Assembly: GCA_965222115.1 (NCBI GenBank)
Contig: CBDCTJ010000001.1
Location: 128,001 to 192,000, forward strand
Length of the DNA: 64,000 nucleotides
Direction: 5' to 3'
DNA from: Planctomycetota bacterium
GTDB taxonomy: Bacteria; Planctomycetota; PLA2; JAEUHO01
Positions 33,019 to 53,903 of this stretch are shown in pieces. The notes below the pieces were generated by a model, which worked only from the letters and a program-made list of their open reading frames with translations, searched no databases and was not told the DNA's origin. The number at the start of each line of letters is the position of its first letter. Position 1 is the first letter of the stretch. The position numbers were made by a program, and so were the translations under genes.

Positions 33019-33948
33019 TCAATCGTCGAAATCCTGGCGTATGAGCTTGTACACGTCCTCGAACGGTTCTTCGTGAGATAGATCCAAGAAACGCACCACA
33101 CCCGTCTCGGCCAACGCGGCCATCGCCTTGAACTCTCGCGCCATGATGGCTTTGTCATCTAGCGCCAGGCGAAAGGAGTGTCTAAGTAGCTCGATTAGTG
33201 CATCGCCCGCATTGCACGGATGTATGCGAGATGCCGACGCTTCAGGGCGAACGACATAGATGCGTCCAATGCGCGTGAATCCATCGCTAAACCGAATGTG
33301 GGGAACATCTTCTGGTATGAAGCGACGTTTGTCTGCGTAATCGGACACCCGCCTATCTTTGGCAACCGGTGGCAAGAGGCGCGCCGCGTCTCGCGGCCAA
33401 AGACGAATTCCCTGGTAGGTAGCGAGTGCGCTCCAAACGCCGTTCCGCTCTCGGACAACAAGCGAGTCATCCCCGAGATGTTCAAAGCCGCGCAGCGCGA
33501 AATTGAGCGCCAGTGTCGACTTCCCTGCGCCCGTCTCGCCGAGGAAAATGATCGTTCGTCCCTTGGAGGCCACGGCACTCCCATGGACCAAATGTCTTCC
33601 ATGCAATGTAAGAGCGCGGGGTATTGCGTTGTCCAGGAGATAGTGCTCCATCGTGATCGCCGAACAACTCGGCGCCGTCTTGACCACCATGCCGCTTCCA
33701 TTGCGCTTTATGTCTGCGAATAGTTCATTCCACACGACAAGCTTGTACGAATCGTGGGTGCTATGAATGGTAAAGGAGGACGTCTCATCCTCTTCGTCTT
33801 CATAGATGCATGCGCCACCGGGTGACGCCCCATCCCATGTATCGCCACGACGGATATCCAGTAGCGCCTGGCCGTTATCCGCGGTGGGCAAGACATCCGA
33901 TGCGTCCGACATCGAGACGACGATGTCTCCGAATTTGTAGCGCCTCAC
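33019..33948 (-). CDS. HPr-kinase-related P-loop kinase (lasso-peptide kinase-like)
   Basis: LVHGSAV, GETGAGKST, LGDD, IRLWP, DKRR; GTG start 10 nt after the methyltransferase stop. Confidence 0.85.
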   Translation of the reverse strand: MRRYKFGDIVVSMSDASDVLPTADNGQALLDIRRGDTWDGASPGGACIYEDEEDETSSFTIHSTHDSYKLVVWNELFADIKRNGSGMVVKTAPSCSAITMEHYLLDNAIPRALTLHGRHLVHGSAVASKGRTIIFLGETGAGKSTLALNFALRGFEHLGDDSLVVRERNGVWSALATYQGIRLWPRDAARLLPPVAKDRRVSDYADKRRFIPEDVPHIRFSDGFTRIGRIYVVRPEASASRIHPCNAGDALIELLRHSFRLALDDKAIMAREFKAMAALAETGVVRFLDLSHEEPFEDVYKLIRQDFDD

Positions 33949-33958
33949 TGCAGAAACC

Positions 33959-35104
33959 CTACTCGGCGTACTTTTCCGCCAACTCTCGAACGAACTGGAG
34001 AGCTGCGTCGCGTGACGGATAGGACTTGGGCGACATTGATTGGACGACGTCGGCAATCTCTTCCGTACTTCCTGTTCCGTCCATCTTGCCAAGTGCCTCG
34101 CGTGCCGTACGGCCTTTAGGGGTCAATGTAGGCCGATAGCCGGATGCATGCTTGCGGGCCATGTCCGCGTTGAACGTCTCTCCCAAGAACTCGGATTGCC
34201 TCATGGTAATGTCCTTGCGACCTGTGCCTCGAACGCTCGCACGCCAAGTCCATATGTATCCGTCGTGCGTTCGCGAACCGCGGAAGCCTATCGTCAATTC
34301 GTCGCCACGGCGCAACTCAACCGCGTCCCGCAGCGGAAAATAGGCTCTTCCGTAGGCGGGCACAGGCATGCCCGGCGAGTTTCGCATTTGAATGTTTTCC
34401 GTGAGATCAGATTCAAACCAGACCTGAGCGGCATCCACCGTTACCGGCCGATGTGCGGTCCAGGTGGCCTGCCCATGAAAGTCCTGCTTAGGTTCTTCGC
34501 GGTATTCAAGTGTTGCCCAATGCCGTGCGGGAAGCACGACCTCTTCGGCTTCGACACATTGCTTCTGCCAGCTATGGACCATCGTTTCGACAAGCGCGGC
34601 CACGTCGATGCCAAAGTCCCAGTCGCCCCAAGGCCGCATGTGATTCGTCCACGTATCGGGTGCGTAAACGGGAGCCACAAACATGCGGTCCCTGAGCGCG
34701 ATCACGGCGGCATCGCTTGTCACAAGTCGGGTCCGGGCGTCGTGTACCGACTGCCAATTGGCTCCATGGTGGGGCATGGTGCCGCGCATATCGGATAAGA
34801 GCACGCTCCCTTGCTCTGGCAAGTCGACGTTGGTTGAAACGTCATGAATCGTGGTTACGCGATCGGCGAATCCCTCCTTCTTGATCAGTTGCTTCGCCAA
34901 TGAAATCGACGCCCTGTCCGACTCAATGGCGTACACATGTTTTGCGCCCGCACGACAGGCCAAGATCGTGAAAAAACCGGTCCCGGACCCAAGCTCCACA
35001 ACGACATCCCCAGCGCCCACCACTTCGTCGATGGCGTCGGCGTACGCAGGTGCGCGTACGGGATCGATCATCGTTCCATAAGCACGTATCGAATATCCAC
35101 TCAT
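33959..35104 (-). CDS. SAM-dependent methyltransferase with protein-arginine-methyltransferase (PRMT)-like fold
   Basis: MIDPVRAPAY, VVELGSGTG, VYAIE, LLSDMRG, VWFESDL, NSPG...YFPL; GGAG RBS. Confidence 0.85.
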   Translation of the reverse strand: MSGYSIRAYGTMIDPVRAPAYADAIDEVVGAGDVVVELGSGTGFFTILACRAGAKHVYAIESDRASISLAKQLIKKEGFADRVTTIHDVSTNVDLPEQGSVLLSDMRGTMPHHGANWQSVHDARTRLVTSDAAVIALRDRMFVAPVYAPDTWTNHMRPWGDWDFGIDVAALVETMVHSWQKQCVEAEEVVLPARHWATLEYREEPKQDFHGQATWTAHRPVTVDAAQVWFESDLTENIQMRNSPGMPVPAYGRAYFPLRDAVELRRGDELTIGFRGSRTHDGYIWTWRASVRGTGRKDITMRQSEFLGETFNADMARKHASGYRPTLTPKGRTAREALGKMDGTGSTEEIADVVQSMSPKSYPSRDAALQFVRELAEKYAE

Positions 35105-35216
35105 GACGACTCCATCGAATGACGCAAAGAAGCCTTGCGATCAACTCGACCACGACGAAACGGGTGCGCGGGTCATAGAACGGGCAACCGCAAGCACGCG
35201 AAATTTGTCTTGCGAC

Positions 35217-35510
35217 CTAGGAGCCCGGCTCAGCAACGAGCAATCCCTTTTCAAGGAGCTGCTCGACAAGGGCATGAATATCCCCGTTCGCTCGGTCGCG
35301 TTCAACATCAAACTCGCTCGTAAGCTCGTCCAGTGTCCGGGCAATCGAACCGTGTTCGCTTATAGAAGTCCAAATAAACGTACCCACTTCATTGAGGCCG
35401 AAGTACGTCCCAGAGGCGAGGTCTACGAGCACCGACTCTTCCTCGGAGAACGAACGAAAGAGCACATCGGGGGAGACGCGAACGTCTCGAGTTGTCTTGG
35501 ATGCGGTCAT
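35217..35510 (-). CDS. PqqD family RiPP recognition element (lasso B1-like)
   Basis: ESVLVDLASGTYFGLNEVGTFIW...LTSEFDVERDRANGDIHALVEQLLEKGLL; 97 aa. Confidence 0.93.
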   Translation of the reverse strand: MTASKTTRDVRVSPDVLFRSFSEEESVLVDLASGTYFGLNEVGTFIWTSISEHGSIARTLDELTSEFDVERDRANGDIHALVEQLLEKGLLVAEPGS

Positions 35511-35833
35511 AGGTCTGTCCCATCCCCCAAAATTGAGAACAACGATGAATCGCCGGTTGCATTCAACATGGGGAGCTTGCCCGAGGCAACCTCATGTCGC
35601 TCGAATACTCAAACTAGAGGAATTCGACCGGCCAATTGGACGGTCTACGAGGCGAAGCGCCTAAACATCCGCGTTCGAGCGGCACTACCTCTGAATTCGA
35701 CCTTGGCGGCTTCCGAACTGCCTTACAGACGGGCGCACAGTTGCACCGCACATCGAGGAATCCCTCGCCCATGAAGGGTCCGTACGTAGCATTTATGAGC
35801 CCCGTCACGGGGTGCGGAGCTCTGGGAGGAGTC

Positions 35834-36961
35834 ATGGTTCGGATCGCGCTCACAATCCTCGCTGCAATGTTGATCTCGGGATGCGCAGCCCCATTTCTTC
35901 AACGTCCGCAGGCGGCTGACGACTGCCCCTCCTGCCAGCCCGCCTTGAGCGACGAGATCGCAAAGTCGGCATTCGCACACACGGCCGAACCCGATTCCGG
36001 CGACACCTACTACGGCGCCGGCGGGCACCTGATCCCCAGCATCGGCGCGTCGATTCACGGTGGCCGCGTCATTCGTCGCACCAAGGACTGGACACTGGCG
36101 CTTGAAGCCGAGTTGATGGGCCATTTCATTGACGACGAGGCGTTCGTGGACGACGGCAACCCGGCTGCGGACCCCTTCATTCAACTCAAGACGGGTGTGA
36201 AGTTTCGCTCCAACCCCTCGGGCTTTCGCCACTGGACGGCACGAGCCGGTCTCACCTACTTTTACGCGGGGAAAGACCCCAATATTGTCCAGGACGAGGG
36301 CAGCTACCTCGGCGTCTACGGCGGAATTGGTTACGAGACGGACATTACCCAAAACATCACGGTGGGCCCGGAGCTGAGCCTCACGGTCGCATCCAAAGCC
36401 GACGAAATCGACTTCAGTCATGGCGTCGTGCCAACGCTTTCGTGGCGCGTGACGTGGTGGCCGGGTGGAAACGGATGCTCCCTTGACCGCTGGCGCAAGC
36501 CCGGCGAACTCTACATGGACCTTGCGGCAATGGCACTGCCGTCCATAGGCGGCGGTTTCGGTTTCGGCCAGGTGTTCTCGCGCGAAGACGGTAAAACGTG
36601 GTCCTTTGAAGCCTTGGCGGGTCTCCAGTCGCTCGACGACGGCACGCTTTGGGCCGACTCCGATGGAGAGTTTGGTCAGTTCCGTGGCGGCGTCAAGGTT
36701 GCGTTTGCCGACCGGGGCATGGGCCACTGGGTCGGCCGCGCGGGGCTCGCCTTCTTAAGAAACACGGGCGAGATTCAGGGCTTTTCCGACACCGGCGACT
36801 ACTTCGGTGGCTATGTAGGCATCGGCTACGAGTTTGAAATCAATAAGTGGCTCACGATGGGTCCCGAGATCTCTCTCACCGTGGCCGACAAGGAAGGCCT
36901 CAGCGACATCGACATTGAGGTGCTGCCGCAGTTCCTCTGGCACGTCATCATCAAGTTCTAG
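35834..36961 (+). CDS. Outer-membrane beta-barrel lipoprotein with two tandem barrel domains
   Basis: GGAGGAG RBS; lipobox ISGC; duplicated PSIG...G-Y-G-Y-GIGYE...GPE...W; C-terminal Phe. Confidence 0.72.
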   Translation: MVRIALTILAAMLISGCAAPFLQRPQAADDCPSCQPALSDEIAKSAFAHTAEPDSGDTYYGAGGHLIPSIGASIHGGRVIRRTKDWTLALEAELMGHFIDDEAFVDDGNPAADPFIQLKTGVKFRSNPSGFRHWTARAGLTYFYAGKDPNIVQDEGSYLGVYGGIGYETDITQNITVGPELSLTVASKADEIDFSHGVVPTLSWRVTWWPGGNGCSLDRWRKPGELYMDLAAMALPSIGGGFGFGQVFSREDGKTWSFEALAGLQSLDDGTLWADSDGEFGQFRGGVKVAFADRGMGHWVGRAGLAFLRNTGEIQGFSDTGDYFGGYVGIGYEFEINKWLTMGPEISLTVADKEGLSDIDIEVLPQFLWHVIIKF

Positions 36962-36980
36962 ACCGCGCAAAGACTCCTGG

Positions 36981-38117
36981 ATGGCACGTATCCTGCAGGT
37001 CTGCAACACGGAATTCTACCTCCGTGGTTTCCTAATGCCTCTCGTTCATGGCCTTCGAGATCGCGGACACGACGTGGAGGCGGTGTGTGGCACCACGAGT
37101 GATAAGACGATCGAAGGCGTGCAAGTCCATTCGTTTTCATTTCCGCAATCACCGAACCCCTTGACGTTCTTTCGTTGTATTCGACGATTCCGTACATTCC
37201 TAAGGCAACATCGCTACAACGTAGTCAACGCGCACAATCGCAATGCGAGCATCGTAGCGCGCATCGCCGCATGGATGGAGCCTGTTCCACACAACATCTA
37301 CACGGCACACGGATTCTATTTCCATGACAATCAGTCGCGTGCAGCGTACGAAATGACTGTGCTTCTTGAGCGCGCGCTTTCGTGGACCAACACGCACACA
37401 TTCAGCCAGAGCCGAGAGGACCTCGATCGACTGGCGCGACGAGGCGCGTCCCTGATCCGCCGATCGCATTGGATTGGCAACGGGATCGATCAAGCGCGAT
37501 TCGAACGTCGCAGAGGCAAACGTGAAGCAGAGGCGAGCCTTGGCCTCGAACCGGACGTGTTTCGGATCGCGACGGTTGGACGCATCGTGCGTGGCAAGGG
37601 ACTCGAGGATCTCGTTGGCGTGCTACCCAGGCTTCGCGATCGCATCCCAAACGCCCGCCTGTTGATCATTGGCGGCAACATCGATCTAGACATCGAGCCC
37701 TGGGCCGAGGAGCTCTTCGCTTCTATCGACGCACGGGGACTACGTGAGTACGTACACGTCACGGGGCTCACGGATCGTGTGCCGGACTACTTGGAGGCGT
37801 CCGATGTGTACGTGTCGCCTTCCCGCCGCGAGGGCATTTCTCGATCCATGCTTGAAGCCATGTCGTTGCCACTCCCCGTCATCGCGACGCGCGTACGTGG
37901 CGCGCGCGAGGTCCTTCGACATGGGGAGAATGGCCTGCTGTACTCGCCGGGAGACTTGAAGGCGCTCGCCCAACGAATCGGGTCGTTGGCGTCAAACGCT
38001 CGACTCCGCGACGATCTCATGAAGGCGGCTAGACTGACGGTTGAGCGCACCTATACGCAAACCGCCTATGTTGAACGCCAGATCCGCGCCATTGATGAGA
38101 TTCTCCCAATCGCTTGA
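36981..38117 (+). CDS. Glycosyltransferase family 4
   Basis: IYTAHGFYF, IGNGID, VGRIVRGKG, PSRREGISRSMLEAM, HGENGLL. Confidence 0.92.
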   Translation: MARILQVCNTEFYLRGFLMPLVHGLRDRGHDVEAVCGTTSDKTIEGVQVHSFSFPQSPNPLTFFRCIRRFRTFLRQHRYNVVNAHNRNASIVARIAAWMEPVPHNIYTAHGFYFHDNQSRAAYEMTVLLERALSWTNTHTFSQSREDLDRLARRGASLIRRSHWIGNGIDQARFERRRGKREAEASLGLEPDVFRIATVGRIVRGKGLEDLVGVLPRLRDRIPNARLLIIGGNIDLDIEPWAEELFASIDARGLREYVHVTGLTDRVPDYLEASDVYVSPSRREGISRSMLEAMSLPLPVIATRVRGAREVLRHGENGLLYSPGDLKALAQRIGSLASNARLRDDLMKAARLTVERTYTQTAYVERQIRAIDEILPIA

Positions 38118-38160
38118 TTCCCCGGGGATTCCGGCACTGAGAACTAGCTACCCACCAGAA

Positions 38161-38190
38161 ATGCGCGGGCGGACAAAGCCACCCGCGCAT
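38161..38190. terminator. Hairpin between convergent genes (possible bidirectional terminator)
   Basis: ATGCGCGGG...CCCGCGCAT inverted repeat between the stops at 38117 and 38248; no clear U-tract. Confidence 0.5.
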
Positions 38191-38247
38191 GTAGATACGT
38201 GATGTCACTACGCGCAGCGTAGCGCGCGAGACAGCTGATTGTTCAGC

Positions 38248-39414
38248 CTAGAAGTGCCAAGTGACGTGCCACTTGAGCATGGGGAATGAGGCGTCATCAC
38301 CACCGTGGGAAATGTTGGTTCCATAGACGAACGCAACTTCCGGCCCGGTCGAGATGTTGTCGGTGATGAACCAATCGAATCCGATGCCGGCATAGGCGCC
38401 GAGGTAGGAACCGTCGTTATCCACTGAGACCGTGTCCCAGCTAATGCGAATCGGTTCGCCGGTAAACTCAAACAACGTGGCGCCAGCGCGCACGAACGGA
38501 CGGAACGCGGAGTTTTTGTTTCCAAAAGCAAACTTGGCACCAAGGCGCAACGCCCAGAACTTCCCTGTCTCGGGCTCCTCCAGGATTTCCTCCCAGAGAT
38601 CTTGGTACGTGGTACTTACCTCAAGGGAAGTCGTTGCTCCGAAGTAGGTGCCAATCTCCTTACCCACGGTGATGCTGCCACCAATACCGGGGGAAATCTC
38701 GAACGCGCCCTCGACATACCACTTGTCGCAACAGCTCTTGCACGCGCAGACGGGCTTCTTCTTGCAGCACGTCTTCTTCTTGCATGCGCCACAAGCTGCT
38801 GCGGGCGAGGTGCGCGGGGCTACACCGCGGTCACTGCGCATAATGGTGGTACCGGCGATGGGCGCAGGCGTCACGTAGGGTTGCGCCATTGGCGTTGCGT
38901 AAGGCGTTGCCGGGTAGGCCGATGCGTAACCCGTAGCCGGCGCGGGTGAATAGGGCACGACCGGGGCAGGAGCGTAGTACGGAGCAGGAGTCGGGGTATA
39001 GGGAACCACAGGAACCGGCTCGCTGTAGGGGATGCTCTCGCTTGGCATAGGTACCGTTTCGGTGTACGGCGCCGGCATGCCATTCGAAGCTCCCTCAGCA
39101 GGGGGAAGTGGCACCGGCTCACCGGCCGGAGGTGCGTCTTCCGTAGCAAGTCGACTTACGTCATTCGAGGGTGCGACAACAACACCTTCCGTAGTCACGC
39201 CGGTCGTTGTGGCGTTCGCGGAACCCATCGCGCCGGTCGAATCCGCAGACGGCGCATTGATCGTCGCGAGTGCGTTGCCCTGTGCAGGCAATACGCCGTA
39301 GTCCAAGTCGGAACCGGAACCAAAGATGGCCCCCGATCGCTCGACACTCGATGCGCAGGCCGAAAGTCCAATGGCCGCCGCGAAGCACGCGCAAAGCGCT
39401 ACTGTGCGAATCAT
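38248..39414 (-). CDS. Outer-membrane beta-barrel lipoprotein with Pro/Tyr-rich linker and Cys/Lys-rich motif
   Basis: Lipobox LSAC; PY/PAP-rich stretch; CGACKKKTCCKKKPVCACKSCC; barrel GSYLGAYAGIGFDW...GPE...WHVTWHF; GGAGG RBS. Confidence 0.72.
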   Translation of the reverse strand: MIRTVALCACFAAAIGLSACASSVERSGAIFGSGSDLDYGVLPAQGNALATINAPSADSTGAMGSANATTTGVTTEGVVVAPSNDVSRLATEDAPPAGEPVPLPPAEGASNGMPAPYTETVPMPSESIPYSEPVPVVPYTPTPAPYYAPAPVVPYSPAPATGYASAYPATPYATPMAQPYVTPAPIAGTTIMRSDRGVAPRTSPAAACGACKKKTCCKKKPVCACKSCCDKWYVEGAFEISPGIGGSITVGKEIGTYFGATTSLEVSTTYQDLWEEILEEPETGKFWALRLGAKFAFGNKNSAFRPFVRAGATLFEFTGEPIRISWDTVSVDNDGSYLGAYAGIGFDWFITDNISTGPEVAFVYGTNISHGGDDASFPMLKWHVTWHF

Positions 39415-39607
39415 GTTCACCCTCCCTCAAGATGCACGCCGCCCTCCTGGGACGTACCCTCGTGTGAATCGTCTAAGCTAGTTGAGTCGGTTGAAATGAT
39501 CCATTCATGCGCCCGCTGCTTCACAAGAAACGAGAAGGGAGGCGGCCGCCAGAGCTCATCGAATACGCTTACGTAGCGTGCTGTTCGGCTTGCTCATTGG
39601 TATCTCG

Positions 39608-40042
39608 TTAGCCCAGCTTTCCCAACCGAGTGTGACGACCCGGTCCCTCACCAACCGTTGGCGTTCCGTCAACCTCAACCCACGCATGGGCGCCAAAGTC
39701 CTGTTTCTTCCCACTTGCTGCGATATGAATCTCACTCGATACACCTGCCTGCGCATAGAGCGCCCGTGCGCCGAGGGCTTGCGGCAAACAAGACGCGCGC
39801 GGGACAAAGCGCGGCGTGGACGAAACGGCGGATTCGATCTCGGGTGGAGGCACACGAGACGATGCACGTAACTGGGGCGTGTACGCCGCCCCTCGACCCA
39901 AGAGCGCCAACGTCTTCTTGGTGCCGACCACGTTCAAGCTCATGCGGGCCGCGGCCACCCAAACAATAGCCCAAAATCGGATCTGGCCTCGTCGAATGCT
40001 GCGGGGACGTCGGGTGACAGGAAAGCGCACGGTTGCCCTCAC
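39608..40042 (-). CDS. Lasso peptide biosynthesis B2 protein (transglutaminase-like leader peptidase)
   Basis: SCLPQAL (Cys), AHAWVE (His/Glu), VGE; 144 aa. Confidence 0.88.
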   Translation of the reverse strand: MRATVRFPVTRRPRSIRRGQIRFWAIVWVAAARMSLNVVGTKKTLALLGRGAAYTPQLRASSRVPPPEIESAVSSTPRFVPRASCLPQALGARALYAQAGVSSEIHIAASGKKQDFGAHAWVEVDGTPTVGEGPGRHTRLGKLG

Positions 40043-40078
40043 GGTGAGCGCCGCGTCATGAGTAGAGGATTACCTACC

Positions 40079-41839
40079 TCAAGCCAGCGGAACGTCATCG
40101 AACGGACCCTTCACGACGCGAACATGTCCGCGCTCTACGAGTAGACACCGATCGGCCGAGTTAAGAGTGCTTCGTCGGTGCGCAATGATGAACGTCGTTC
40201 GCCCCTCCATGAGCCGCTTCAGCGCGCCCAAGATTTCACGTTCCGTATCGACGTCGAGAGCACTCGTCGGTTCGTCGAGTATCAGTATCGGGGCATCGCG
40301 CAAGAACGCGCGCGCAATTGCAACGCGCTGCCGCTCGCCGCCGGAGAGCTTCACGCCACGCTCGCCAACCTGCGTGTCATATCCCTCGGGCATCGCTGAG
40401 ATAAACGCATGCGCGGAAGCGCGCCGGGCGGCATCTTCAACTTGTTCGCGGGAGGCATGTACATCGCCGACGATGATGTTGTCCACAATCGAACCGGAAA
40501 ACAGAACCGGGTCTTGTTGAACAATGGCGAACTGTCTCCTGAGATCTGCAAGAGCAATCGATCGAATGTCGACGCCATCCAGACTCACACTGCCCGAAAG
40601 AGGATCGTAAAACCGCGGAAGAAGCGAGAGCAATGTGCTCTTCCCCGATCCGGTGCGCCCGGCCACGCCCACGCAACTCCCGGCGGGAATCTCCGCGCTC
40701 ACGGCGTCAAGGACATGCCGCCCGTCTCCGTAACCAAAACGCACATCGCGCAGTGAGACATCGCCGCGGGCCCGATCGAGCCTTTTTGGATGCACCGCAT
40801 CTAAAATCTCCGGTTCTTCGTCGAATACGTCATAGACCCGGCTCACGCGAGCCAAAGCGCTTTGCAGATCGGCTACGCTTGCGCCAAGTGCTCGAATCGG
40901 TGCGTAGAGTTGAGACAGATACGTAAGCGCCATTAAGAGCTCGCCCAAAGTGATTTTGCCCTGCAACACGTGGCGCGTCCCTACGACCAATACTAGCGCG
41001 CCCCCTATAGCTGCGGCCATGCCCATGAGGAAGCCAAGTGCGTTTCGCGCGCGTACGGCCCCCATTTGATCATTGATGGCCGAGCGGTTCTTCTCGATGT
41101 GTGCCGCCTGCTGACGGGACTCCAGTCCATAGGCCTTTACCACGCGGATCGCGTTCAAAGATTCTGACACGATCGAAAGCGCAGCACTGTCGCTCTCATG
41201 CGCGGTCCGCCATCTACGCCTGAGCGCCCGCCGAAACATCTCCACCAAAACGAATACAACGGGCGCCCCGAGCAACGCAATGCCCACGAGCGTCGCATCG
41301 ATCTGCGCAGTAACGATTAGCAACAGCACGACCTTGGCCAGAAGAGGCATCATGGTGAGCATGCCTTCCATGACAACACTCTGAATGGCATACACATCAA
41401 CTTGCGCGCGATAGAGCAGATCCGAAGTTTTGTTGCGCTGATGAAACGCGAGCGACAAACGCTGCAAGTGGCCCAGAAGTTTCGCGCGAAAGTTCCGCAC
41501 GAGGTGCTCACTCGTCCATGAGTAATAAACCCAGTAGAAGTAGCGCCTCACGAGCGTAACGATCGCGATCACCACTAGCCCTACCGCGCAGAGGTAAAGC
41601 AACGCCTCTCCGTCCTGGGTCCACGACGTGAGAAGCCAGTTGGTGAGGTAGTCGGGTGCCGGCTCATCCCCAATCACACAGTCAACGACGATTTGAAGCG
41701 GAATTGGAAACAGTAGCGCCAGGGGCGCCGCGAGCAGCCCAAGCACCAACAACGCCGCCAAGTGTTTCCAAAGCGGACGCGCCTCACGAAAGAGCCGGCG
41801 ATAGAGTGTCCAGTCACCAAGGCGTGTGTATGGAGACAT
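40079..41839 (-). CDS. ABC exporter, fused TMD+NBD
   Basis: GRTGSGKST, LSGGERQR, ILDEPTSALD, IAHR; directly upstream of and co-oriented with B2. Confidence 0.92.
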   Translation of the reverse strand: MSPYTRLGDWTLYRRLFREARPLWKHLAALLVLGLLAAPLALLFPIPLQIVVDCVIGDEPAPDYLTNWLLTSWTQDGEALLYLCAVGLVVIAIVTLVRRYFYWVYYSWTSEHLVRNFRAKLLGHLQRLSLAFHQRNKTSDLLYRAQVDVYAIQSVVMEGMLTMMPLLAKVVLLLIVTAQIDATLVGIALLGAPVVFVLVEMFRRALRRRWRTAHESDSAALSIVSESLNAIRVVKAYGLESRQQAAHIEKNRSAINDQMGAVRARNALGFLMGMAAAIGGALVLVVGTRHVLQGKITLGELLMALTYLSQLYAPIRALGASVADLQSALARVSRVYDVFDEEPEILDAVHPKRLDRARGDVSLRDVRFGYGDGRHVLDAVSAEIPAGSCVGVAGRTGSGKSTLLSLLPRFYDPLSGSVSLDGVDIRSIALADLRRQFAIVQQDPVLFSGSIVDNIIVGDVHASREQVEDAARRASAHAFISAMPEGYDTQVGERGVKLSGGERQRVAIARAFLRDAPILILDEPTSALDVDTEREILGALKRLMEGRTTFIIAHRRSTLNSADRCLLVERGHVRVVKGPFDDVPLA

Positions 41840-42138
41840 GGAGCCGTCGTGTCCCTAAGAACCTGGGAAACCAACATACGTCAACGAGCCAGATCAACCA
41901 CGCCCTGTCCCGCTTGGAATCGCCTCCACGTTCGAGTACGCCCAAGATCACCATCCCCCCGGAACCGTTGACTTGACAGGGCGCGAGCATTTGCGATAGC
42001 CGGTCGCGACCGGGCATCACCGCCGCTTGTCTTGACTTCGGCGACATACTCGGAATCGATTGGAGGCGGAGGGGAACGGGCGGTGAAACATGTAACCGGC
42101 GCGGGTCGTTTCGTACACCCGCATTTGCGCACCCGGCA

Positions 42139-42969
42139 TTGATCGGTGGAGCTAGAGTGTTCCCTGTGACGGAAGGTCCCGAAATTCAATCCATGCTCCT
42201 GGGACGCAATTACCAGGACGGCGACGCGCGCGTGACGTGGAATTCTCGGTGTGGGCGGGCAGACGCTGCCCTCGCTCGCGGGCACGTCAAGCCGGAGAAC
42301 GAGGACGCGCTCCTGGTTCGATTTCGTGATGATACGTGGCTGGCGCTGGTTGCCGACGGCCATTTGGGACACGCCGCCAGCCACGAACTGACCGAGGCGT
42401 TTGCGCGGGCACCTGCGGGGATTACGGGCTCGCCGATGGCACTGGGGCACTTCATCGAAGAGACGCTCCATGGCGCGACACCCCAGCCGGAGGCAGGCAC
42501 TACCCTCACCGTGTGCGCATTGGACATGCGACGACGCGAGCTCTTTGGTTACTCGTGGGGCGACTCGACGGCGGCGATCCTTCGTTCCGGCAAACGTCCC
42601 CGTGTGCTGACCAACAAAAATGGCAACTTCATTCGACTAGACGAATCGATACCGCCTCCACGCCCACAAACGTTTTCATGCCGCATACCCTTTGAGAGCA
42701 CGTTGCTGCTCTACACGGACGGCGTTGACGAATGCCACTACCGGCATCCCGGATCTTCGATCCGCATTCATCACATTCAGAATATCTACGAACGAGCGCG
42801 GGCTTCATCGTCGTCAATGGCTGAACAACTCTTGGACGCAGCACTCGATGGTCTGTCGGGTATGCCGGGCGGCGAAGACAACATTGCCATCCTCTCGATC
42901 ACGCCCGATCAGCGTGCCAAGACGGGCGCGGGTGCTACGCCTGAACGATTCGTGCCCGTGGGTCCTTAA
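42139..42969 (+). CDS. PP2C/PPM family Ser/Thr phosphatase
   Basis: ENEDAL, VADGHLG, GTTL, WGDS, YTDGV, EDNIA; start uncertain. Confidence 0.85.
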   Translation: MIGGARVFPVTEGPEIQSMLLGRNYQDGDARVTWNSRCGRADAALARGHVKPENEDALLVRFRDDTWLALVADGHLGHAASHELTEAFARAPAGITGSPMALGHFIEETLHGATPQPEAGTTLTVCALDMRRRELFGYSWGDSTAAILRSGKRPRVLTNKNGNFIRLDESIPPPRPQTFSCRIPFESTLLLYTDGVDECHYRHPGSSIRIHHIQNIYERARASSSSMAEQLLDAALDGLSGMPGGEDNIAILSITPDQRAKTGAGATPERFVPVGP

Positions 42970-45531: not shown

Positions 45532-46413
45532 ATGATGACTATTCGCAGAAAAGTCGGAAACGTCCTGCGGACGCTCTTGTTGCCGCCTGCGCGACTACTC
45601 CGAGCAATGCATGTTCGACTTCCTGAGCGAGTCTATCGACACTTGCACTCGACTGGTCCGTTCAGCACGCGTCTCCCATGCGGAAACCGCGTAGTTTTGA
45701 TGTCATGGGGTAACAAGGTCGAAAATCAGATCTATTGGAAAGGGGCATTGGGACACGAACCGGCGGCCATGTCCCGTTGGCTGACGCTATCGCGCCATGC
45801 ACGTTGCATACTAGATATTGGGGCCAACACTGGTGTATTCGCATTTTTCGCGAAAGCTACAAATCCTAACGCAGAAGTATTCGCATTCGAACCCATCCCG
45901 CGCATCGCGCAGAGGATACAGGAGAACCGAACTGTCTCAGGACTGGATGTATTGGTGTGCAAGACTGCTGTCGCGAATCAATCCGGCACGGTTTCGATCC
46001 ACGATCCAGGCGGAGAAAACGCATACAGCGCCTCACTCGACGCGAGCTTCCTAAGTAGCGCTACGACCGCAATTGAAGTACCTGTGACTTCGGTAGATGC
46101 GTTTTGTATGTCGCGCGACCTTACCCCGGACTTGATGAAGATCGATGTCGAAGGCGTTGAATCGGAAGTCCTACTAGGAGCGGCGTCGACTTTGCGAACG
46201 GCGCGGCCGTCAGTCATTTGTGAATGGCAAGGTGGCTCTGAATCGCACGCAGAAGTAGCGAAAATGCTTCGAGATTTAGGCTACACGTTGCTTAGCGATG
46301 AAGGTATGCCGTTACGGGCACTTGAGCATCGGAGAGGCCACGAAGATCGAAACGTCTTGTTCATACCGCAAGAGAGAGAAGACCGAATCAAAGTAATTAA
46401 CCACATGGGTTAG
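45532..46413 (+). CDS. FkbM family methyltransferase
   Basis: ILDIGANTG, AFEP, MKIDVEGVESEVL. Confidence 0.9.
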   Translation: MMTIRRKVGNVLRTLLLPPARLLRAMHVRLPERVYRHLHSTGPFSTRLPCGNRVVLMSWGNKVENQIYWKGALGHEPAAMSRWLTLSRHARCILDIGANTGVFAFFAKATNPNAEVFAFEPIPRIAQRIQENRTVSGLDVLVCKTAVANQSGTVSIHDPGGENAYSASLDASFLSSATTAIEVPVTSVDAFCMSRDLTPDLMKIDVEGVESEVLLGAASTLRTARPSVICEWQGGSESHAEVAKMLRDLGYTLLSDEGMPLRALEHRRGHEDRNVLFIPQEREDRIKVINHMG

Positions 46414-48302
46414 CGAATGAATCCCCTTCGCTTGAGTGTGGAAAAGATCATGCCTGCGGCATCCTCCACCGAAATTTCGTGTATTGGTATGTCGACATCC
46501 GGCGACGTTGGTGGTTCATACGGTGCAGTAACCCCGGTAAAATTTTCGATCTCGCCAGAGCGAGCGCGCTCATACAACCCTTCGTCGTCACGCTGCTCAC
46601 ACACCTCCAGAGGAGCCGAACAGTAGATTTCGATAAACTTCGTGTCTCCGATCACCGTTCGTATATACGCGCGGTCGTCTGAGAACGGTGAAACGAATGA
46701 CGCTATGGCTATAACTCCGGCGTCGTTCAAGAGCTTTGCAATGCCGGCTGCGCGACGAAGGTTCTCTGTCCGATCATCTGCGGAGTAGCCAAGGTCTACA
46801 TTGACCGTCTCGCGCAGCGACGGTCCATTCACGACGAAGCACGTCTTTCCTGCCTCCACAAGTCTCTCTTCTAACGCATAGGCGACCGAGGCCTTGCCTG
46901 ATCTGGGTAGCCCAGTGATCCAGACTGTCACCGCACGCTGATTTAGCACCTCTTCGCGCCTAGCCGTAGAAACGCGCGACCGCGTCAGCTTAGACTGCTT
47001 GTAGGTGTCTTTGTCGTGAGTTGCGCGCGTACCAACAATCATGCCGCATGCCACCGTAGCGTTGGTCATCCTGTCAATCATGACGAATGAGCCAGTGCGA
47101 CGATTCTTCTTGTACGTATCATGCGCTATGGCTCGTGTACACGTTATCGACACTCGAGCGATTTCATTCAACGCGATTCCACTTCCCTGCATCCGATGAA
47201 GTGAATTTGGGTCAAGTCGATATCGTATCGACGACACGAATCCGGTGACCTTTTCGCTTGCAAGTCGTATCCAATACCCTCTTTCCTGATCTAACGAATC
47301 TGATGACATCCACACCACCATTGCGTCGAAATCGTGCGATAGCTTCGGCACATTTCCTGGGTGAACAATCATGTCACCACGACTCAAGTCGATTTGATCT
47401 TCTAGTTGCACTGTCACGGCCATAGGCGGGAACGCTTCTTGAAGATCCCCTTCATGAGTGCTAATCGACGCGATTCGAGTCCGCATCCTTGATGGCAATG
47501 CCATGACGTCGTCACCACGACGCAAAATGCCGGAGGCAAGAGAACCAGCGAAACCTCTAAAGCTGGAATTTGGGCGGAGCACATACTGCACCGGAAAACG
47601 TAGATCGATGAGGTTGCGGTCAGACGCCACGTGTACGCGTTCTAGATAGTCCAAGAGCGGACTTCCCTGGTACCACGGCATGCGGCTGCTTCGGCTTACG
47701 ACGTTGTCTCCTTGTAACGCAGACACCGGGATAAATTGAACGTCTGTAAACTCCAACTTCGCTGCAAAGTCCGAAAATTCGTGCCGAATCTGGTCATATA
47801 CACGCTCATCCCAATTCACAGTATCCATCTTGTTGATCGCCACAGCAACGTGGCGGATGCCAAGCAGCGAAACAACGAAACTGTGCCTTCGAGTCTGTTC
47901 TAGCACTCCAGCACTTGCGTCAATTAGAATGACAGCTAAGTCGCATGACGATGCTCCGGTTGCCATATTTCGAGTGTACTGGGCATGTCCAGGTGCGTCC
48001 GCAATGATAAATTTTCGTTTGGGCGTGCTGAAGTAGCGGTACGCCACGTCAATCGTTATTCCCTGTTCTCGTTCAGCGCTAAGCCCGTCAGTCAGCAGTG
48101 AGAGATCCAGCATGCGTTCGTCACCAACACTTCCTTTGGCGCTATCTCGTTCCAATGCACTAAGCTGGTCCTCATAAATGCCCTTGGAGTCATATAGGAG
48201 TCGCCCGATTAGCGTGCTCTTGCCATCATCAACGCTCCCGGCTGCCAGAAACCGGAGCAGGTCCTTGCGAGCATTAAGCTCGAGGTACTCGCGAAAATGC
48301 AC
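46410..48302 (-). CDS. cysNC: Sulfate adenylyltransferase subunit 1 fused to APS kinase domain
   Basis: GSVDDGKSTLIGRLL, EREQGITIDVAYRYF, DAPGH, NKMD; C-terminal CysC domain. GTG start overlaps the cysD TAG (TAGTG). Confidence 0.95.
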   Translation of the reverse strand: MHFREYLELNARKDLLRFLAAGSVDDGKSTLIGRLLYDSKGIYEDQLSALERDSAKGSVGDERMLDLSLLTDGLSAEREQGITIDVAYRYFSTPKRKFIIADAPGHAQYTRNMATGASSCDLAVILIDASAGVLEQTRRHSFVVSLLGIRHVAVAINKMDTVNWDERVYDQIRHEFSDFAAKLEFTDVQFIPVSALQGDNVVSRSSRMPWYQGSPLLDYLERVHVASDRNLIDLRFPVQYVLRPNSSFRGFAGSLASGILRRGDDVMALPSRMRTRIASISTHEGDLQEAFPPMAVTVQLEDQIDLSRGDMIVHPGNVPKLSHDFDAMVVWMSSDSLDQERGYWIRLASEKVTGFVSSIRYRLDPNSLHRMQGSGIALNEIARVSITCTRAIAHDTYKKNRRTGSFVMIDRMTNATVACGMIVGTRATHDKDTYKQSKLTRSRVSTARREEVLNQRAVTVWITGLPRSGKASVAYALEERLVEAGKTCFVVNGPSLRETVNVDLGYSADDRTENLRRAAGIAKLLNDAGVIAIASFVSPFSDDRAYIRTVIGDTKFIEIYCSAPLEVCEQRDDEGLYERARSGEIENFTGVTAPYEPPTSPDVDIPIHEISVEDAAGMIFSTLKRRGFIR

Positions 48303-49216
48303 TAGAAGTATCCCTCACGCTTCTTCTGCTCCATAGCACCAGACTCTTCATGGTCAATGACTCTTCCAGATCGCTCAGAGTGTGACGCTGAAATCATCTC
48401 TTCGACGATTTCTTCGACGGAAGTTGCACTGCTTTCGACTGCACCCGTCAATGGGTAGCAACCCAGCGTGCGGAACCTGACGCGGCGATGCTGCGGAGCT
48501 TCCCCCGCCTTGAGTCTCATGCGATCGTCATCCACCAAGATAAGATTTCCTCCACGTTCCACGACCGGTCTCTTAGCCGCAAAGTAGAGCGGCACTACAG
48601 GAATCTGCTCTGTATAGATGTAGAGCCACACGTCGAGCTCGGTCCAGTTTGAAAGTGGGAAGACTCGGATGCTCTCACCAGGCTTGACCTCTGTGTTGTA
48701 CAACTGCCAGAGCTCGGGTCGTTGATTCTTGGGATCCCATTGATGGAATCTGTCTCGAAAGGAAAAGATGCGTTCTTTGGCGCGGGACGTTTCCTCGTCG
48801 CGCCTAGCCCCGCCAAACGCAGCATCAAACCCGTGGGTACTAAGTGCCTGCTTCAGCGCCTCTGTCTTCATTACCCTCGTGTAGTTAGAGGAGCCATGGT
48901 CAAAAGGATTGATACCCTCACGAACACCATCCGTGTTCTTGTGGACAATTAGCTTCACGCCCAGGTGGTCACACGTCTTGTCACGGAAATCGATCATCTC
49001 CTTGAACTTCCATGTCGTATCAACATGAAGAAGTGGAAACGGTAGTGGCGCGGGATGAAACGCTTTCTGTGCCAACCGGAGCATGACAGAAGAGTCTTTC
49101 CCCACTGAATACATCAATACCGGATTGGAAAACTCCGCAGCGACCTCGCGCATGATGTAGATGCTCTCGGCCTCAAGCTGCTGCAGATGACTAAGTACAT
49201 ACTTGGTTACAGGCAT
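48302..49216 (-). CDS. cysD: Sulfate adenylyltransferase subunit 2
   Basis: [40 protein letters not shown]. Confidence 0.97.
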
Positions 49217-49227
49217 CTTGACATCTA

Positions 49228-49842
49228 CTACTTAATTCGATCAATCGCGAGTTGAACGACGTCGTACAACTGCGACACGCATTCAGATACACTGTGCTTG
49301 GCGGTGTCTAACGCAAGCGCCGGTGACTTAGGTACTTCGTAGGGGGCCGACACGCCAGTGAACTCCTCGATTTCGCCGGTTCGTGCGAGAGAGTACAATC
49401 CCTTCGGGTCCCGCGCCTCACACTGTTCAACCGTAGCTCTCACGAAAACTTCAAGGAATCGTTTAGGCCCCGAAGCTTGTCGAGCTGCTTCTCTGCCTTT
49501 CGCGTAAGGAGAAATGCAGGCCACGAGCACGACTACGCCCGCATCCGCAAATAACGCCGCTACCTCCCCCAGTCGTCGAACATTCTCTTCTCGGTCCAGC
49601 GGTGAAAAGCCAAGATCACTATTCAGCCCGTGACGGACGTTGTCTCCATCGAGACGATACGTCAGGACGTTGCTCTGGTGCAGGCGCTCCTCCAGACCGT
49701 TCGCCAAGGTGGACTTTCCTGATCCCGACAATCCAGTAAGCCAAACCACGAGCCCAGCCTGGCTAAGCATAGTTTCGCGATTCTCTCGCTCAACGGAACC
49801 GGCCGACCACTCGACACGATTCCTCTTGTCAGATGTCGTCAT
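49228..49842 (-). CDS. cysC: Adenylyl-sulfate kinase
   Basis: [38 protein letters not shown]. Confidence 0.96.
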
Positions 49843-50232
49843 GCCGATCGCGCCCAATCTGTCCTCGAAGTCGCCAACTAGACATGGAATGTACTAGCTC
49901 CTGCTCAGCCTCTCATCCTTTGGCGCCACTTGAACTCTCGTCCAATTCGACTCCCCGCGCCTGGTATACGAGTCGAACGTCGCCACTGCAGCAATTTTCC
50001 GCCCCAAAAACGGGAAAGAACCACGAGCACAATGCCGCAACTCTGCGTCGGCCCTGCGCCGGGCTCCGTTTGAAATCTTCTCTACTACCTGATCCGATTC
50101 ACTCGCTGCGAGGTGCGTCCCTTCGAAATCGTCATCGTCGACGTGAACAGACCACGCCTACGGATCAATTTCTTAGTCCATCGCCCCTCGCTTCGGTATC
50201 GAATCACTCGCAACGAGCTTTCCAAACAAAAC

Positions 50233-51138
50233 TTAGCTCATCTTAAGCCAATTGGGGAGTAGTCGGCCGGTGACCTGCTCGAGCTTTCGCCGATCGGGTT
50301 CTAGCTTTTTGGCGATTGTCTTTGCCAATTCACGCGGAATTTCCTCGACACTGGCCCTTGCCATATTCGCCGCCTTGAGCCTTCTCCCTAAGTGGAGGCG
50401 ATCCCGTTTAAGCGCGCGCCGCAGCAATCTCGCAGAGGCTAGGACGATGGGACCAGGACGCTGAGTGATCCGAGCAATGGATTTGGAACGGCTACTTCGA
50501 GCAGCGTGAATCTTGGGGAACTCAGTACGGCCTCCATCCTGCAAGTCGAGGAAATTGAGAATCGCAAGGTATTCGCTCCGCGCGTCCGTGGTCCATCGGT
50601 CAAACCATACGATGTGGACCTGTTCGCGGGGAACATGGCGATACAAACGCTCAACTTGTTCGCCGAACGAGGCCACTGCGGCATAGTTTAGGAATGACGA
50701 CTCAAGGCATGTCTTTGGAATGTCTCTGCCAAACTTCCGTTCTTCCCACGCCACCCAGGCTTCGGCAAAAGAAGAATACACTTCGTTCTGTCCATAGAGT
50801 AACTCGTTGTGATAAGACGGCAAGAATGAGAGTGGTGGTCGAAGAAAAGCCAAGACTCTCGAGCTAGAATTGTGCTCGATGAGTCGTTGTACGGCGACAT
50901 CCGAGTATAGGTACATGACGGAGCACTCGCCCTCATACGCATATTTACTTGATTGGGGAAACAACTCTAGGTAAGAATCCCAGTCCCTGTACCAGCGAAA
51001 TCGGTCGTGGTCGAAGTTGAAGAAGTGAGGTTCTTTCGGTCCTGAAAAGAAGATTTCAGAATGGTCCGCTAGATATGTACGCCATGCGGTTGTTCCTGAC
51101 TTAGGAGCGCCCACGAGAAACAGGTTGGGCTTTCTCAT
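50233..51138 (-). CDS. Sulfotransferase (Sulfotransfer_1/3 type)
   Basis: PNLFLVGAPKSGTT PAPS loop, KEPHFF, LRPP...S. Confidence 0.88.
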   Translation of the reverse strand: MRKPNLFLVGAPKSGTTAWRTYLADHSEIFFSGPKEPHFFNFDHDRFRWYRDWDSYLELFPQSSKYAYEGECSVMYLYSDVAVQRLIEHNSSSRVLAFLRPPLSFLPSYHNELLYGQNEVYSSFAEAWVAWEERKFGRDIPKTCLESSFLNYAAVASFGEQVERLYRHVPREQVHIVWFDRWTTDARSEYLAILNFLDLQDGGRTEFPKIHAARSSRSKSIARITQRPGPIVLASARLLRRALKRDRLHLGRRLKAANMARASVEEIPRELAKTIAKKLEPDRRKLEQVTGRLLPNWLKMS

Positions 51139-51359
51139 CTTTGCCTCCTTCATCCGAAGTGCGGACGCCAAATCCAGAACCACGACCAAGAATATGTCGG
51201 TCTCACAAGTCCCGCCCAGCTTCTTGAGTCGGAATCTAGAGTTCTTGGCAACACCGCTCGTGATACTACAGTCTTGTCGGGAGTATAGTTGTTCACGCGG
51301 CGCTGTGAGGGGGCTCTTTGGTGCGCCCCGTCAATCAAACTAGCCGCACAGGCCCAGAA

Positions 51360-52658
51360 ATGAAGATGACCCACTCCACTACCATTCGCGTTGTGGCCAA
51401 TCTTGGCGCAAAGGTATTCGCGGTCCTGTGCCGACTGCTAACTGCAATTCTCCTGGGTCGGTGGCTAGGACCAGCGGGATACGGGCTCTATGCGATCGGC
51501 GTCAGTGTCTTGCGTATAGGAGCGATACCCGCGGGTGTTGGACAAGAAGGGCTCCTGGTGCGCGTAGTTTCGCTCGTCGGGACCGGTGAACCCGCCTATT
51601 CGCGCGCGCGTGAAATAGGCGCGCTGTGGGGAAGCGCCATGGGGATCGTCGTAACTTGCTCCACCGGAGTCGTTGTGGCTGGCTTGGCCGCAGTTTCTCT
51701 CAGCTCCGAACCGAGCCCAGGAGTCTACATAGCTGCGATTGCTGCAATCCCCTTGGTCTCTCTGTCCGCAGCTCAACAAGGACTACTACGGGGCCTGAAC
51801 CACGTAGTTCAGGCCGCGATTCCGCGCCTAGTCGTAGCGCCAGCGATAACTCTAATACTCATTCTTATAGTTCGGTCACAAAATCCCCAACCCATGCTGG
51901 GAGTGATCTGCGTGGGGATAGGCGGTCTCGCTTCTTGCTCATGCGCAGCCATACTTGTGATGCGAACAGGTCAAGTCCGTTCGCCCAGTATTGACAGACA
52001 AACATGGAAGCGACTTGTTCGAGAAGGCGCGCCTTTCATGGTCATTGCCGGACTTGGCGTGATTGCCAGACAAATCGACATTCTGTGTCTTGCGTCTATT
52101 CGAGGCGAGACAGAAACGGGGCTCTACAGTGCTGCCTCCAGGTTGTCCGCCTTACCAATATTCACCCTTGGCGCAATCAATGCAGTTATCTCGCCCAAGC
52201 TTGCTCGCTTGCACGAGAATGGCCAACAAGATCGACTGCAGAGGCTAGTGACAAAAGCCATGTGGGCTATCTCGGCATCCACAACACTTTCGACGATAGG
52301 CCTCCTACTATTCGCTCCATTTGTCTTCTCGCTATTTGGTGCCGGATTCGAGACATCGATGCCGATTCTGGTGGTCCTCGTAGCAGGTGCAGCGATCAAC
52401 AGTCTTTGCGGACCGTGTGGGACGCTAATGCTCATGGCGGGACATCAACGTGTAGTAACAAAGACGTTCACCTATACCTGCCTAGGAAACTTGGCCATGA
52501 ACTTGCTCCTGGTCCCAATCTACGGCGCAATTGGTGCGGCAATCGCTACGGGGGCGACTCAAGTTGCCTGGAACGTTGCACTTACCGCACTGTGTCGATC
52601 AAGATTAGGAATAGATCCGAGTCTTGCAGTACTCTTGAAACCACCCCGAACCGGTTAG
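51360..52658 (+). CDS. wzx: Polysaccharide flippase (Wzx/MOP family)
   Basis: LGRWLGPAGYGLY, GLYSAASRL, LNLLLVP-like MNLLLVPIYGAIGAAIAT; many TMs. Confidence 0.85.
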   Translation: MKMTHSTTIRVVANLGAKVFAVLCRLLTAILLGRWLGPAGYGLYAIGVSVLRIGAIPAGVGQEGLLVRVVSLVGTGEPAYSRAREIGALWGSAMGIVVTCSTGVVVAGLAAVSLSSEPSPGVYIAAIAAIPLVSLSAAQQGLLRGLNHVVQAAIPRLVVAPAITLILILIVRSQNPQPMLGVICVGIGGLASCSCAAILVMRTGQVRSPSIDRQTWKRLVREGAPFMVIAGLGVIARQIDILCLASIRGETETGLYSAASRLSALPIFTLGAINAVISPKLARLHENGQQDRLQRLVTKAMWAISASTTLSTIGLLLFAPFVFSLFGAGFETSMPILVVLVAGAAINSLCGPCGTLMLMAGHQRVVTKTFTYTCLGNLAMNLLLVPIYGAIGAAIATGATQVAWNVALTALCRSRLGIDPSLAVLLKPPRTG

Positions 52659-52853
52659 AAGCGTGTCCCGAGCAAGTCAAGAGAATGTGGAAGAATATTG
52701 CATGACTGGAATCCACGTTCGACAATCAAGGGTGACGGAGTTCATCACTCACCTTACTCGTCAAATTTTGCAAGGACCCAGACACGCGACAAAGGAGACC
52801 AATTGTGTACTCAGCGGACAGTAAGCTAGACGGGAAACTGAGACAGACACCAC

Positions 52854-52912
52854 TGAGTTGACCCGTCTTCGGTACAGGCTGGATCGATGTCCACGAAAAC
52901 GGGTCAACTCCA
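52854..52912. repeat. Imperfect inverted repeat with TG...CA ends (IS-end/MITE remnant or terminator)
   Basis: TGAGTTGACCCGTCTTCG ... CGAAAACGGGTCAACTCCA; 12-bp perfect core GAGTTGACCCGT/ACGGGTCAACTC. Confidence 0.55.
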
Positions 52913-52928
52913 CGATCTTGTAGTCGTC

Positions 52929-53810: not shown

Positions 53811-53903
53811 TGACCCAAATGACTCCTGTCCTCAGTGCTGACCGGCGGAATGGTACCTGGGCAGCGTTGCGCGACAAACGACGGACGGGGAGAAGTAGAA
53901 ACC

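Follow-up and report, generated by a model that had tools for sequence, protein, structure and literature searches.

Gene content of the split locus

The 64-kb window studied here, a stretch of contig CBDCTJ010000001.1 from a Planctomycetota bacterium, carries genes of the kind found in biosynthetic clusters for lasso peptides, one class among the peptides that are made on ribosomes and altered after translation (RiPPs). A gene map compiled from mechanical calls of open reading frames (ORFs) and from Pfam and NCBIfam scans of the window revealed two minus-strand cassettes (Table 1), one with an ATP-binding cassette (ABC) exporter gene followed by the gene of a B2 leader peptidase, the other with genes for a RiPP recognition element (RRE), a methyltransferase homologous to protein arginine methyltransferases (PRMTs) and an HPrK-like kinase, in that order. 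Judged by sequence, these are the genes for leader recognition (RRE), leader removal (B2) and tailoring (kinase and methyltransferase) of a lasso pathway, and the ABC gene is probably its export gene. The genes between the cassettes, which encode two beta-barrel lipoproteins and a glycosyltransferase of family 4 (GT4), are an insert from outside the lasso family, and the cluster appears to be broken into two operon-like pieces around it. An earlier note on this DNA had described this split, the two cassettes and all gene identities correctly; the first lipoprotein gene and the GT4 gene lie on the plus strand, and only the lipoprotein gene at 38248-39420 is on the minus strand. Taken alone, the window is a modest finding, an intact and incomplete gene set whose status hinges on the rest of the genome.

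For comparison, species-representative genomes were scanned with an alignment of the methyltransferase, and the best 80 of 297 stretches were used as related loci, with flanks of up to 10 kb. Their ORFs were called mechanically and clustered, the clusters were named by Pfam and NCBIfam, and home-made profiles were built from them. The genome of the window lies outside the species representatives that were scanned (best match 38% identity). Proteins related to the EF-G encoded in the window, at about 70% identity, bear the name Planctomycetota, which makes a planctomycete the probable source.

Within the cassettes the genes are closely spaced. The ABC gene lies 36 nt upstream of B2, the kinase GTG at 33948 is 10 nt past the methyltransferase stop, and GGAG is found 7 nt ahead of the methyltransferase ATG, the gene starts of the methyltransferase/kinase cassette being tightly coupled. 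In a promoter and terminator scan of 32.8-42.4 kb, sites were no more numerous than in shuffled sequence, so that the operon limits are set by spacing only. GC content is even (0.58-0.61) over 30-46 kb, and the composition matches that of the flanks.

The kinase was matched by Pfam Hpr_kinase_C at 24 bits, under the cutoff of 33.3, and by a profile built only from related loci at 168 bits (positions 61-302 of 321). Its structural model, with a predicted local distance difference test score (pLDDT) of 92, matched phosphoenolpyruvate carboxykinase and HPrK/P folds. The gene probably starts at GTG 33948 and not at TTG 34092; the longest ORF reaches 34092, overlapping the methyltransferase gene, and ATG 33912 is another alternative. 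The kinase retains 13 of 18 family-conserved positions, among them the His, the P-loop Lys and two Asp; the family-invariant residues H122, G142, K143 and D161 are all present, and at least 85% of 27 kinases from cyclase-containing loci share D160. The His-Lys-Asp-Asp set of kinase-bearing lasso clusters (PadeK/ThcoK/SyanK type), a motif named in PMC9266682, was recognized by motif and fold. A pairing of an HprK-related kinase (TIGR04352) with a PqqD-family chaperone (TIGR04353) also defines the HPr-rel-A system of NCBIfam, which is associated with exopolysaccharide (EPS) loci, but the window proteins fall short of membership, with 29.7 bits against a cutoff of 200 for HprK_rel_A and 21 against 35 for PqqD. 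No paper on the HPr-rel-A system or its HprK-related kinase was found in the literature searched.

A PqqD-type RRE, the B1 protein of lasso clusters, is encoded in the window: its best NCBIfam matches are lasso PqqD chaperones, below their cutoffs, and the protein (PF05402) was matched at 73 bits (positions 14-100 of 106) by an RRE profile of related loci built without the window, with six of seven conserved positions kept. The B2 peptidase scored 62 bits against NCBIfam lasso_biosyn_B2 (NF033537, cutoff 33) and 48 bits (positions 8-131 of 163) against a profile built without the window. It retains 10 of 12 conserved positions, including C85 and H119, which are invariant across 18 sequences and represent the predicted catalytic Cys and His of a lasso B2 peptidase. 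Co-folding of B2 with the RRE, each with its alignment, gave a score of 0.00, from which nothing was drawn. No frameshift or internal stop was found in the kinase, methyltransferase, RRE and B2 genes, and the catalytic residues are kept; the four family genes are intact and show no visible decay; evidence of decaying genes was one of the things that the earlier note had named as refuting its reading.

A profile of lasso-locus ABC proteins built without the window scored both ABC proteins of the window alike (360 bits for the one beside B2 and 343 bits for the one at 2729-4804), so the exporter was rejected as specific to lasso loci and is linked to the gene set by adjacency only. Divergent from the exporter gene lies a PP2C-type phosphatase gene (42193-42969, plus strand). 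A 196-aa ORF at 41881-42471 on the minus strand was rejected as a gene; it has no family match and an Arg-rich, off-frame look, and it overlaps the PP2C gene.

The two lipoproteins are paralogues, with the barrel domain present twice in the protein at 35834-36961 and once in that at 38248-39420. The N-terminal half of the latter has a long stretch rich in Pro/Tyr/Ala/Val, then a run rich in Cys/Lys, ahead of the beta-barrel domain. A gap of 20 nt separates the first lipoprotein gene from the GT4 gene, whose best NCBIfam match is the glycosyltransferase of the PEP-CTERM/XrtA system (TIGR03088), below cutoff; in the literature searched, lasso peptides and PEP-CTERM appeared together only in incidental mentions. 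Neither lipoprotein has relatives among the 80 related loci, in which the GT4 and PP2C genes of the window are likewise without counterparts.

Table 1. Genes of the two cassettes and of the block between them (window coordinates).
Feature	Position	Strand	Details and basis
HPrK-like peptide kinase	33019..33948	-	309 aa from GTG 33948; weak Pfam match, local profile, model fold
PRMT-homologous S-adenosylmethionine (SAM) methyltransferase	33959..35104	-	381 aa, C-terminal three-helix tail (~residues 325-381); Pfam, PDB profile, Foldseek
PqqD-type RRE (lasso B1)	35217..35510	-	Pfam PqqD, E 9e-18
Beta-barrel outer-membrane lipoprotein	~35834..36961	+	Two tandem ~160-aa domain copies; Pfam OMP_b-brl; lipobox LISGC
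GT4 glycosyltransferase	~36981..38117	+	Pfam Glycos_transf_1, E 7e-34
Beta-barrel outer-membrane lipoprotein	38248..39420	-	Pro/Tyr/Ala-rich, then Cys/Lys-rich N-terminal half
Lasso B2 leader peptidase (transglutaminase-like cysteine protease)	39608..40042	-	NCBIfam NF033537, Pfam Transglut_core3
MsbA-like ABC exporter	40079..41839	-	Generic family match; tied to gene set by adjacency only

A PRMT homologue with an altered pocket

The methyltransferase METHYLTRANSFERASE, recognized by the Pfam scan as a class I SAM enzyme, is a true PRMT homologue. A profile of its family compared with the PDB matched PRMT7, 8, 2, 1 and 6 at E-values down to 4e-59 over about 290 residues, which span both the Rossmann SAM domain and the PRMT beta-barrel and include motif I. 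Its AlphaFold model (pLDDT 91) was matched by Foldseek to PRMT6, PRMT1, Hmt1 and PRMT8 (E about 4e-24, TM-score up to 0.86), which bears out the PRMT fold that had been proposed from the sequence.

Despite this homology to eukaryotic-type PRMTs (PRMT1/2/6/7/8) in sequence and fold, the family differs from them in its double-E loop and in an extra C-terminal helical tail. In PRMTs the double-E loop holds the arginine guanidinium. The profile alignment with PRMT2 revealed no such loop in the methyltransferase family: SEWMG of PRMT2 aligns to S-D-x-R-G (profile 'sDlrG'), the first Glu being replaced by Asp and the following Met by Arg, and the second Glu of the loop is not conserved. D105 occurs in all of the 23 family members compared, and at least 90% of them share R107 and G108. 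Because the double-E loop is replaced by D-x-R-G, the target of the enzyme need not be arginine.

The window protein is a regular member of this family, with 379 bits against a profile built without it (positions 9-388 of 389) and 43 of 44 family-conserved positions kept. Among 5.8 billion proteins, 39 relatives were found, the nearest with 39% identity; the nearest Atlas clusters carry the automatic names 'L11 methyltransferase family' or 'class I SAM methyltransferase'. With the helical half of RREs, the tail past residue 325 gave a weak hhalign alignment (probability 47%, E 2e-4). It was rejected as an RRE at that probability, the model having three helices without a beta-sheet, and the tail is RRE-like but short of an RRE. 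Two distant relatives possess an extra N-terminal domain instead of the tail, which is RRE-like by eye.

Passages of PMC9266682 and PMC8498205 assign the lasso methyltransferases known so far to the StspM/LasF or PIMT types. The window enzyme shares with the C-terminal O-methyltransferases StspM/LasF and the PIMT-type LihM/TceM a place in SAM-dependent tailoring within lasso clusters, and it differs from them as a PRMT homologue with Rossmann domain, PRMT beta-barrel and helical tail. No PRMT-type lasso methyltransferase was found in the literature searched, including passages of reviews from 2021, 2022 and 2026, nor was any relevant paper on lasso peptides together with arginine methyltransferases.

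Missing core genes and the related cluster family

The genes that would make the set complete were searched for throughout the window with cyclase and nucleotidyltransferase profiles that contain no window sequence. As the earlier note had stated, no cyclase is encoded there: a profile from 26 related loci found nothing at E<=1e-3 in the six-frame translation of the 64 kb, no Asn_synthase domain was found by Pfam among the 50 long ORFs of the window, and tblastn of the window with 26 cyclases and 12 nucleotidyltransferases gave evenly scattered noise (best cyclase E 0.06). The nucleotidyltransferase profile likewise had no match in the six-frame translation. Among long ORFs without a family, considered as cyclase substitutes and rejected, only the one at 61349-62569, 20 kb off and beside a polysaccharide deacetylase gene, gave a match, which was weak and ATP-grasp-like.

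The absence of a precursor from the window, also part of the first reading of this DNA, was borne out. No precursor with YxxPxL, Thr at position -2 and a ring-closing acidic residue was found in the 64 kb; the sole match of a lasso leader regular expression was spurious and off-frame, and two precursor profiles reached best E-values of 4.8 and 9.2. Small ORFs in six intergenic gaps, including one of 20 aa that stops where the RRE begins, showed no lasso-leader motif and no convincing ribosome-binding site. The window thus holds no candidate substrate for the gene set.

The related loci indicate what such a set normally contains. A quick tree of 78 methyltransferases, from which L061, L069 and L080 were dropped as short matches, showed two clades of 37 and 41 rows (SH-aLRT 99), with the window in the 41-row clade. 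Across the 41 loci of this clade (40 tree rows plus L061), a kinase was identified in 30, a precursor in 30, a cyclase in 28, an RRE in 25, B2 in 21, a PF14907 nucleotidyltransferase in 18 and an ABC gene in 16. Where at least 5 kb were available on each side of the methyltransferase gene (22 loci), 18 had the kinase and 17 the cyclase; of these 18 loci with a kinase, 17 carried a cyclase in cis. One common gene order is RRE-B2-cyclase-precursor-methyltransferase-kinase-nucleotidyltransferase(-ABC), and another is kinase-methyltransferase-RRE-B2-cyclase. This is a recurrent and widespread lasso cluster family, apparently undescribed as far as the literature searched goes, with kinase, nucleotidyltransferase and PRMT-type tailoring. 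It occurs in at least six phyla, and a cyclase encoded in cis was observed in six.

The cyclases of the related loci match Pfam Asn_synthase, and the lasso cyclase model NF033535 was the best NCBIfam match for 8 of 10 Asn-synthase-type proteins, above cutoff in L004 and L015; the exceptions were a divergent protein of L027 and a second protein of L015, an ordinary EPS-type amidotransferase, which adjoins the lasso gene set there. Precursors with the leader YxxPxLxxxGxxxxxT were found by regular expression in 22 of 29 cyclase loci. The 34 parsed precursors have the first acidic core residue at position 8-10, a Ser/Thr within the last four residues and a Lys/Arg within the last six in 29 cases each; the precursor profiles were trained on the same ORFs, and their match counts describe the training set only. 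Tandem precursor genes, two or three with related cores in one cluster, were observed in L008 (9487-9942), L012 (11146-11884) and L064 (163-1807). In L061 the methyltransferase (9986-11153) runs over two frames (9986-10651 and 10551-11153) within an otherwise complete cluster, by a frameshift or a sequencing error.

In the 37-row clade, most methyltransferases have no RiPP neighbours. Among its members are 19 Nitrospirota/Nitrospinota loci (L034-L037, L039, L040, L042-L044, L046-L052, L056, L060 and L062), whose PRMT-like methyltransferases of about 317 aa are without the helical tail. RiPP genes are absent from these loci; the recurrent neighbours are of a housekeeping type and include, in 9-16 loci each, genes for a major facilitator superfamily transporter, an NAD-dependent DNA ligase and tryptophan synthesis. 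The acidobacterial locus L072 (9863-19183), with a methyltransferase of this other clade, encodes two RREs, B2, a nucleotidyltransferase, a kinase, a GT41/TPR protein, a 2-oxoglutarate/Fe oxygenase and two family-less ORFs; a cyclase was not found within 10 kb.

Gene sets of the family are often incomplete in other genomes as well. L016 has the precursor, kinase, methyltransferase and ABC genes, with RRE, B2 and cyclase not in reach, and L030 has the kinase, methyltransferase, ABC and nucleotidyltransferase genes and, 10 kb off at the edge of its locus, a bona fide lasso precursor. As L016 and L030 carry a lasso precursor, they depend on a cyclase. The gene content of L013 (7068-11444, examined with flanks of 10 kb each), L004, L010 and L015 is the mirror image of that of the window: cyclase, precursor, methyltransferase and kinase are present, and RRE and B2 are not in reach. 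The closest resemblance to the window was found in L007, where kinase, methyltransferase, RRE and B2 genes stand in a row, accompanied by ORFs similar to the nucleotide-sugar dehydrogenase and epimerase of the window; the ORF directly after B2 we take, by eye, to be a MarR-type regulator. L007 is a 5.8-kb contig cut inside the kinase gene, and a cyclase gene may lie upstream.

Recurrence of the gene set without a cyclase, the question that the earlier note had put to gene neighbourhoods, finds no support as a type of its own among the related loci examined. The cyclase-less loci with associated genes are scattered on the tree, requiring 8 changes for 9 tree rows (153 of 500 shuffles were as low), and do not form a clade; most are short or cut-off contigs or carry a lasso precursor. 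The informative ones suggest scattering of the genes rather than a new pathway.

The earlier note's description of the gene set as neighbour to a polysaccharide locus held. The set is surrounded by a large envelope-polysaccharide region with GT2 and GT9 glycosyltransferases, Kdo/WaaP-type kinases, an ArnT-like transferase and TviB/TviC-like enzymes, together with sulfate activation genes, sulfotransferases and a flippase. Similarly, polysaccharide export genes (initiating transferase, EpsL-like porin, Wza, Wzc) flank the complete loci L004, L010 and L061 and the partial loci L007, L016 and L030, of which L030 and L016 adjoin Wza/Wzc-type genes. Since complete and partial loci are flanked alike, this neighbourhood is not a mark of the cyclase-less state.

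Further genes of the window were observed on both sides. A sulfated-polysaccharide gene set at 46410-63963, with a GC content of 0.53-0.55 against 0.58-0.63 to its left, encodes a fusion of CysN with adenosine 5'-phosphosulfate (APS) kinase, a PAPS_reduct-family protein, a second APS kinase, three sulfotransferase-family proteins and the flippase, and also a nucleotidyl transferase (PF00483), a dehydratase, a GT4, a polysaccharide deacetylase and the weak ATP-grasp-like ORF. A 1319-aa Ser/Thr kinase gene and an adjacent gene for an FHA protein (17482-21952, minus strand) lie 12 kb to the left of the gene set.

Interpretation of the locus

We favour, at about an even chance, a broken-up lasso cluster whose genes may still work with a cyclase and one or more precursors encoded elsewhere in the genome. 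This reading is preferred because the same genes normally stand in complete clusters and because complementary partial sets exist in other genomes; the sets of L016, L030, L013, L004, L010 and L015 are a precedent for acting in trans, in a family that is often split. The comparative data (a cyclase in nearly all well-covered kinase-bearing loci, and the complementary partial sets) thus favour the orphan cluster completed in trans that the earlier note had offered as one option, with a relic or a re-use of the genes still competing.

In many respects the window and its relatives resemble paeninodin/SyanK-type split-B clusters, with which the window shares a separate PqqD-type RRE, a transglutaminase-like B2, an HPrK-like kinase with His-Lys-Asp-Asp and an ABC gene (as set out in parts of PMC9266682), and the related loci the YxxPxL...T precursor leader and the Ser/Thr near the precursor C-terminus. 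Unlike these clusters, the window has no cyclase or precursor gene in its 64 kb, an extra PRMT-type methyltransferase, and two cassettes split by envelope genes. The related loci that pair the kinase with a PF14907 nucleotidyltransferase (18 of 41) are comparable, in the type of gene present, to pseudomycoidin-type clusters with kinase and the nucleotidyltransferase PsmN; the window differs in having no nucleotidyltransferase. In passages of PMC9266682 and PMC8498205, the C-terminal Ser is described as the site that HPrK-like lasso kinases phosphorylate, in the linear precursor and ahead of B2 and cyclase, and its phosphate as the group that PsmN decorates. By analogy, the RRE would bind the YxxPxL...T leader, the kinase would phosphorylate the linear precursor at a Ser/Thr close to its C-terminus, and the methyltransferase would add a methyl group to this precursor; B2 would then cut off the leader, the trans-encoded cyclase would close the ring and the ABC protein would export the product.

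Several observations weigh against completion in trans. Cyclase, precursor and nucleotidyltransferase genes are absent for 34 kb to the left and 29 kb to the right of the methyltransferase gene, and this distance exceeds that of every relative examined, the relatives' flanks being at most 10 kb. The methyltransferase branch is long (1.09, the median being 0.31), and relatives no nearer than 39% identity leave no means of dating the break-up or of measuring selection at work now. Moreover, the kinase departs from its family at 5 of 18 conserved positions, by conservative changes, and the ABC exporter is not specifically of the lasso-locus type.

The competing explanation that we consider next in probability, although doubtful, is that the locus is a relic, from which cyclase, precursor and nucleotidyltransferase genes were lost during the rearrangement that inserted the lipoprotein/GT4 block, leaving intact, functionless genes that head for decay. 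The missing core genes, the disrupted canonical gene order and the long methyltransferase branch without a close relative in the same lineage are all consistent with such a loss, whereas the undamaged reading frames and catalytic residues of the four family genes, the translational coupling with a good ribosome-binding site, the absence from the tblastn search of the window of cyclase fragments that would mark a recent deletion, and a composition equal to that of the flanks argue against it. That the split arose from a chimeric join in the contig, evidently of metagenome type, appears highly improbable: GC content is even across the region, the genes at both junctions are complete and normally spaced, and two separate joins would be required.

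A re-use of the genes without a cyclase seems unlikely to us. They would then make, by a leader-dependent route, a linear peptide that is phosphorylated and methylated, or would modify an envelope protein or glycoconjugate in a functional tie with the polysaccharide locus; the earlier note had raised the linear peptide and the modification of surface proteins. The tailoring and peptidase genes are intact, the family recurs beside polysaccharide genes (GT4, TviB/TviC-like and ArnT-like in the window; L007, L030 and L016), and kinases of the HPrK-like lasso type act on linear precursors, as described in parts of PMC9266682. However, no candidate substrate gene was found in or near the locus, and the recurrence analysis lends no support: cyclase-less loci are no clade, L016 and L030 carry ordinary lasso precursors, and the contig of L007, cut inside the kinase gene, leaves room for a cyclase upstream. 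The cyclase-bearing loci L004, L010 and L061 also adjoin polysaccharide export genes, and the lipoprotein, GT4 and PP2C genes of the window recur in none of the related loci. Quite improbable, too, is a more specific form, in which RRE, kinase, methyltransferase, B2 and ABC would modify and export a substrate under the guidance of a leader, without a cyclase and in connection with the biogenesis of envelope polysaccharide. The Asp/Arg pocket would then methylate a group other than arginine, such as the phosphate or carboxylate that the always-adjacent kinase makes accessible.

What is new here is the type of the methyltransferase and the repeated placement of these genes next to polysaccharide loci. 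A PRMT homologue with a rebuilt pocket, nearly always beside an HPrK-like kinase, points to a lasso modification that is undescribed in the literature searched. With family genes as scattered as they are here, in sets without RRE and B2, in sets without a cyclase and with precursors 10 kb off, cyclase-anchored mining would miss or truncate such clusters. The occurrence of both complete and partial sets beside polysaccharide export genes hints at a link between the peptide and the cell envelope.

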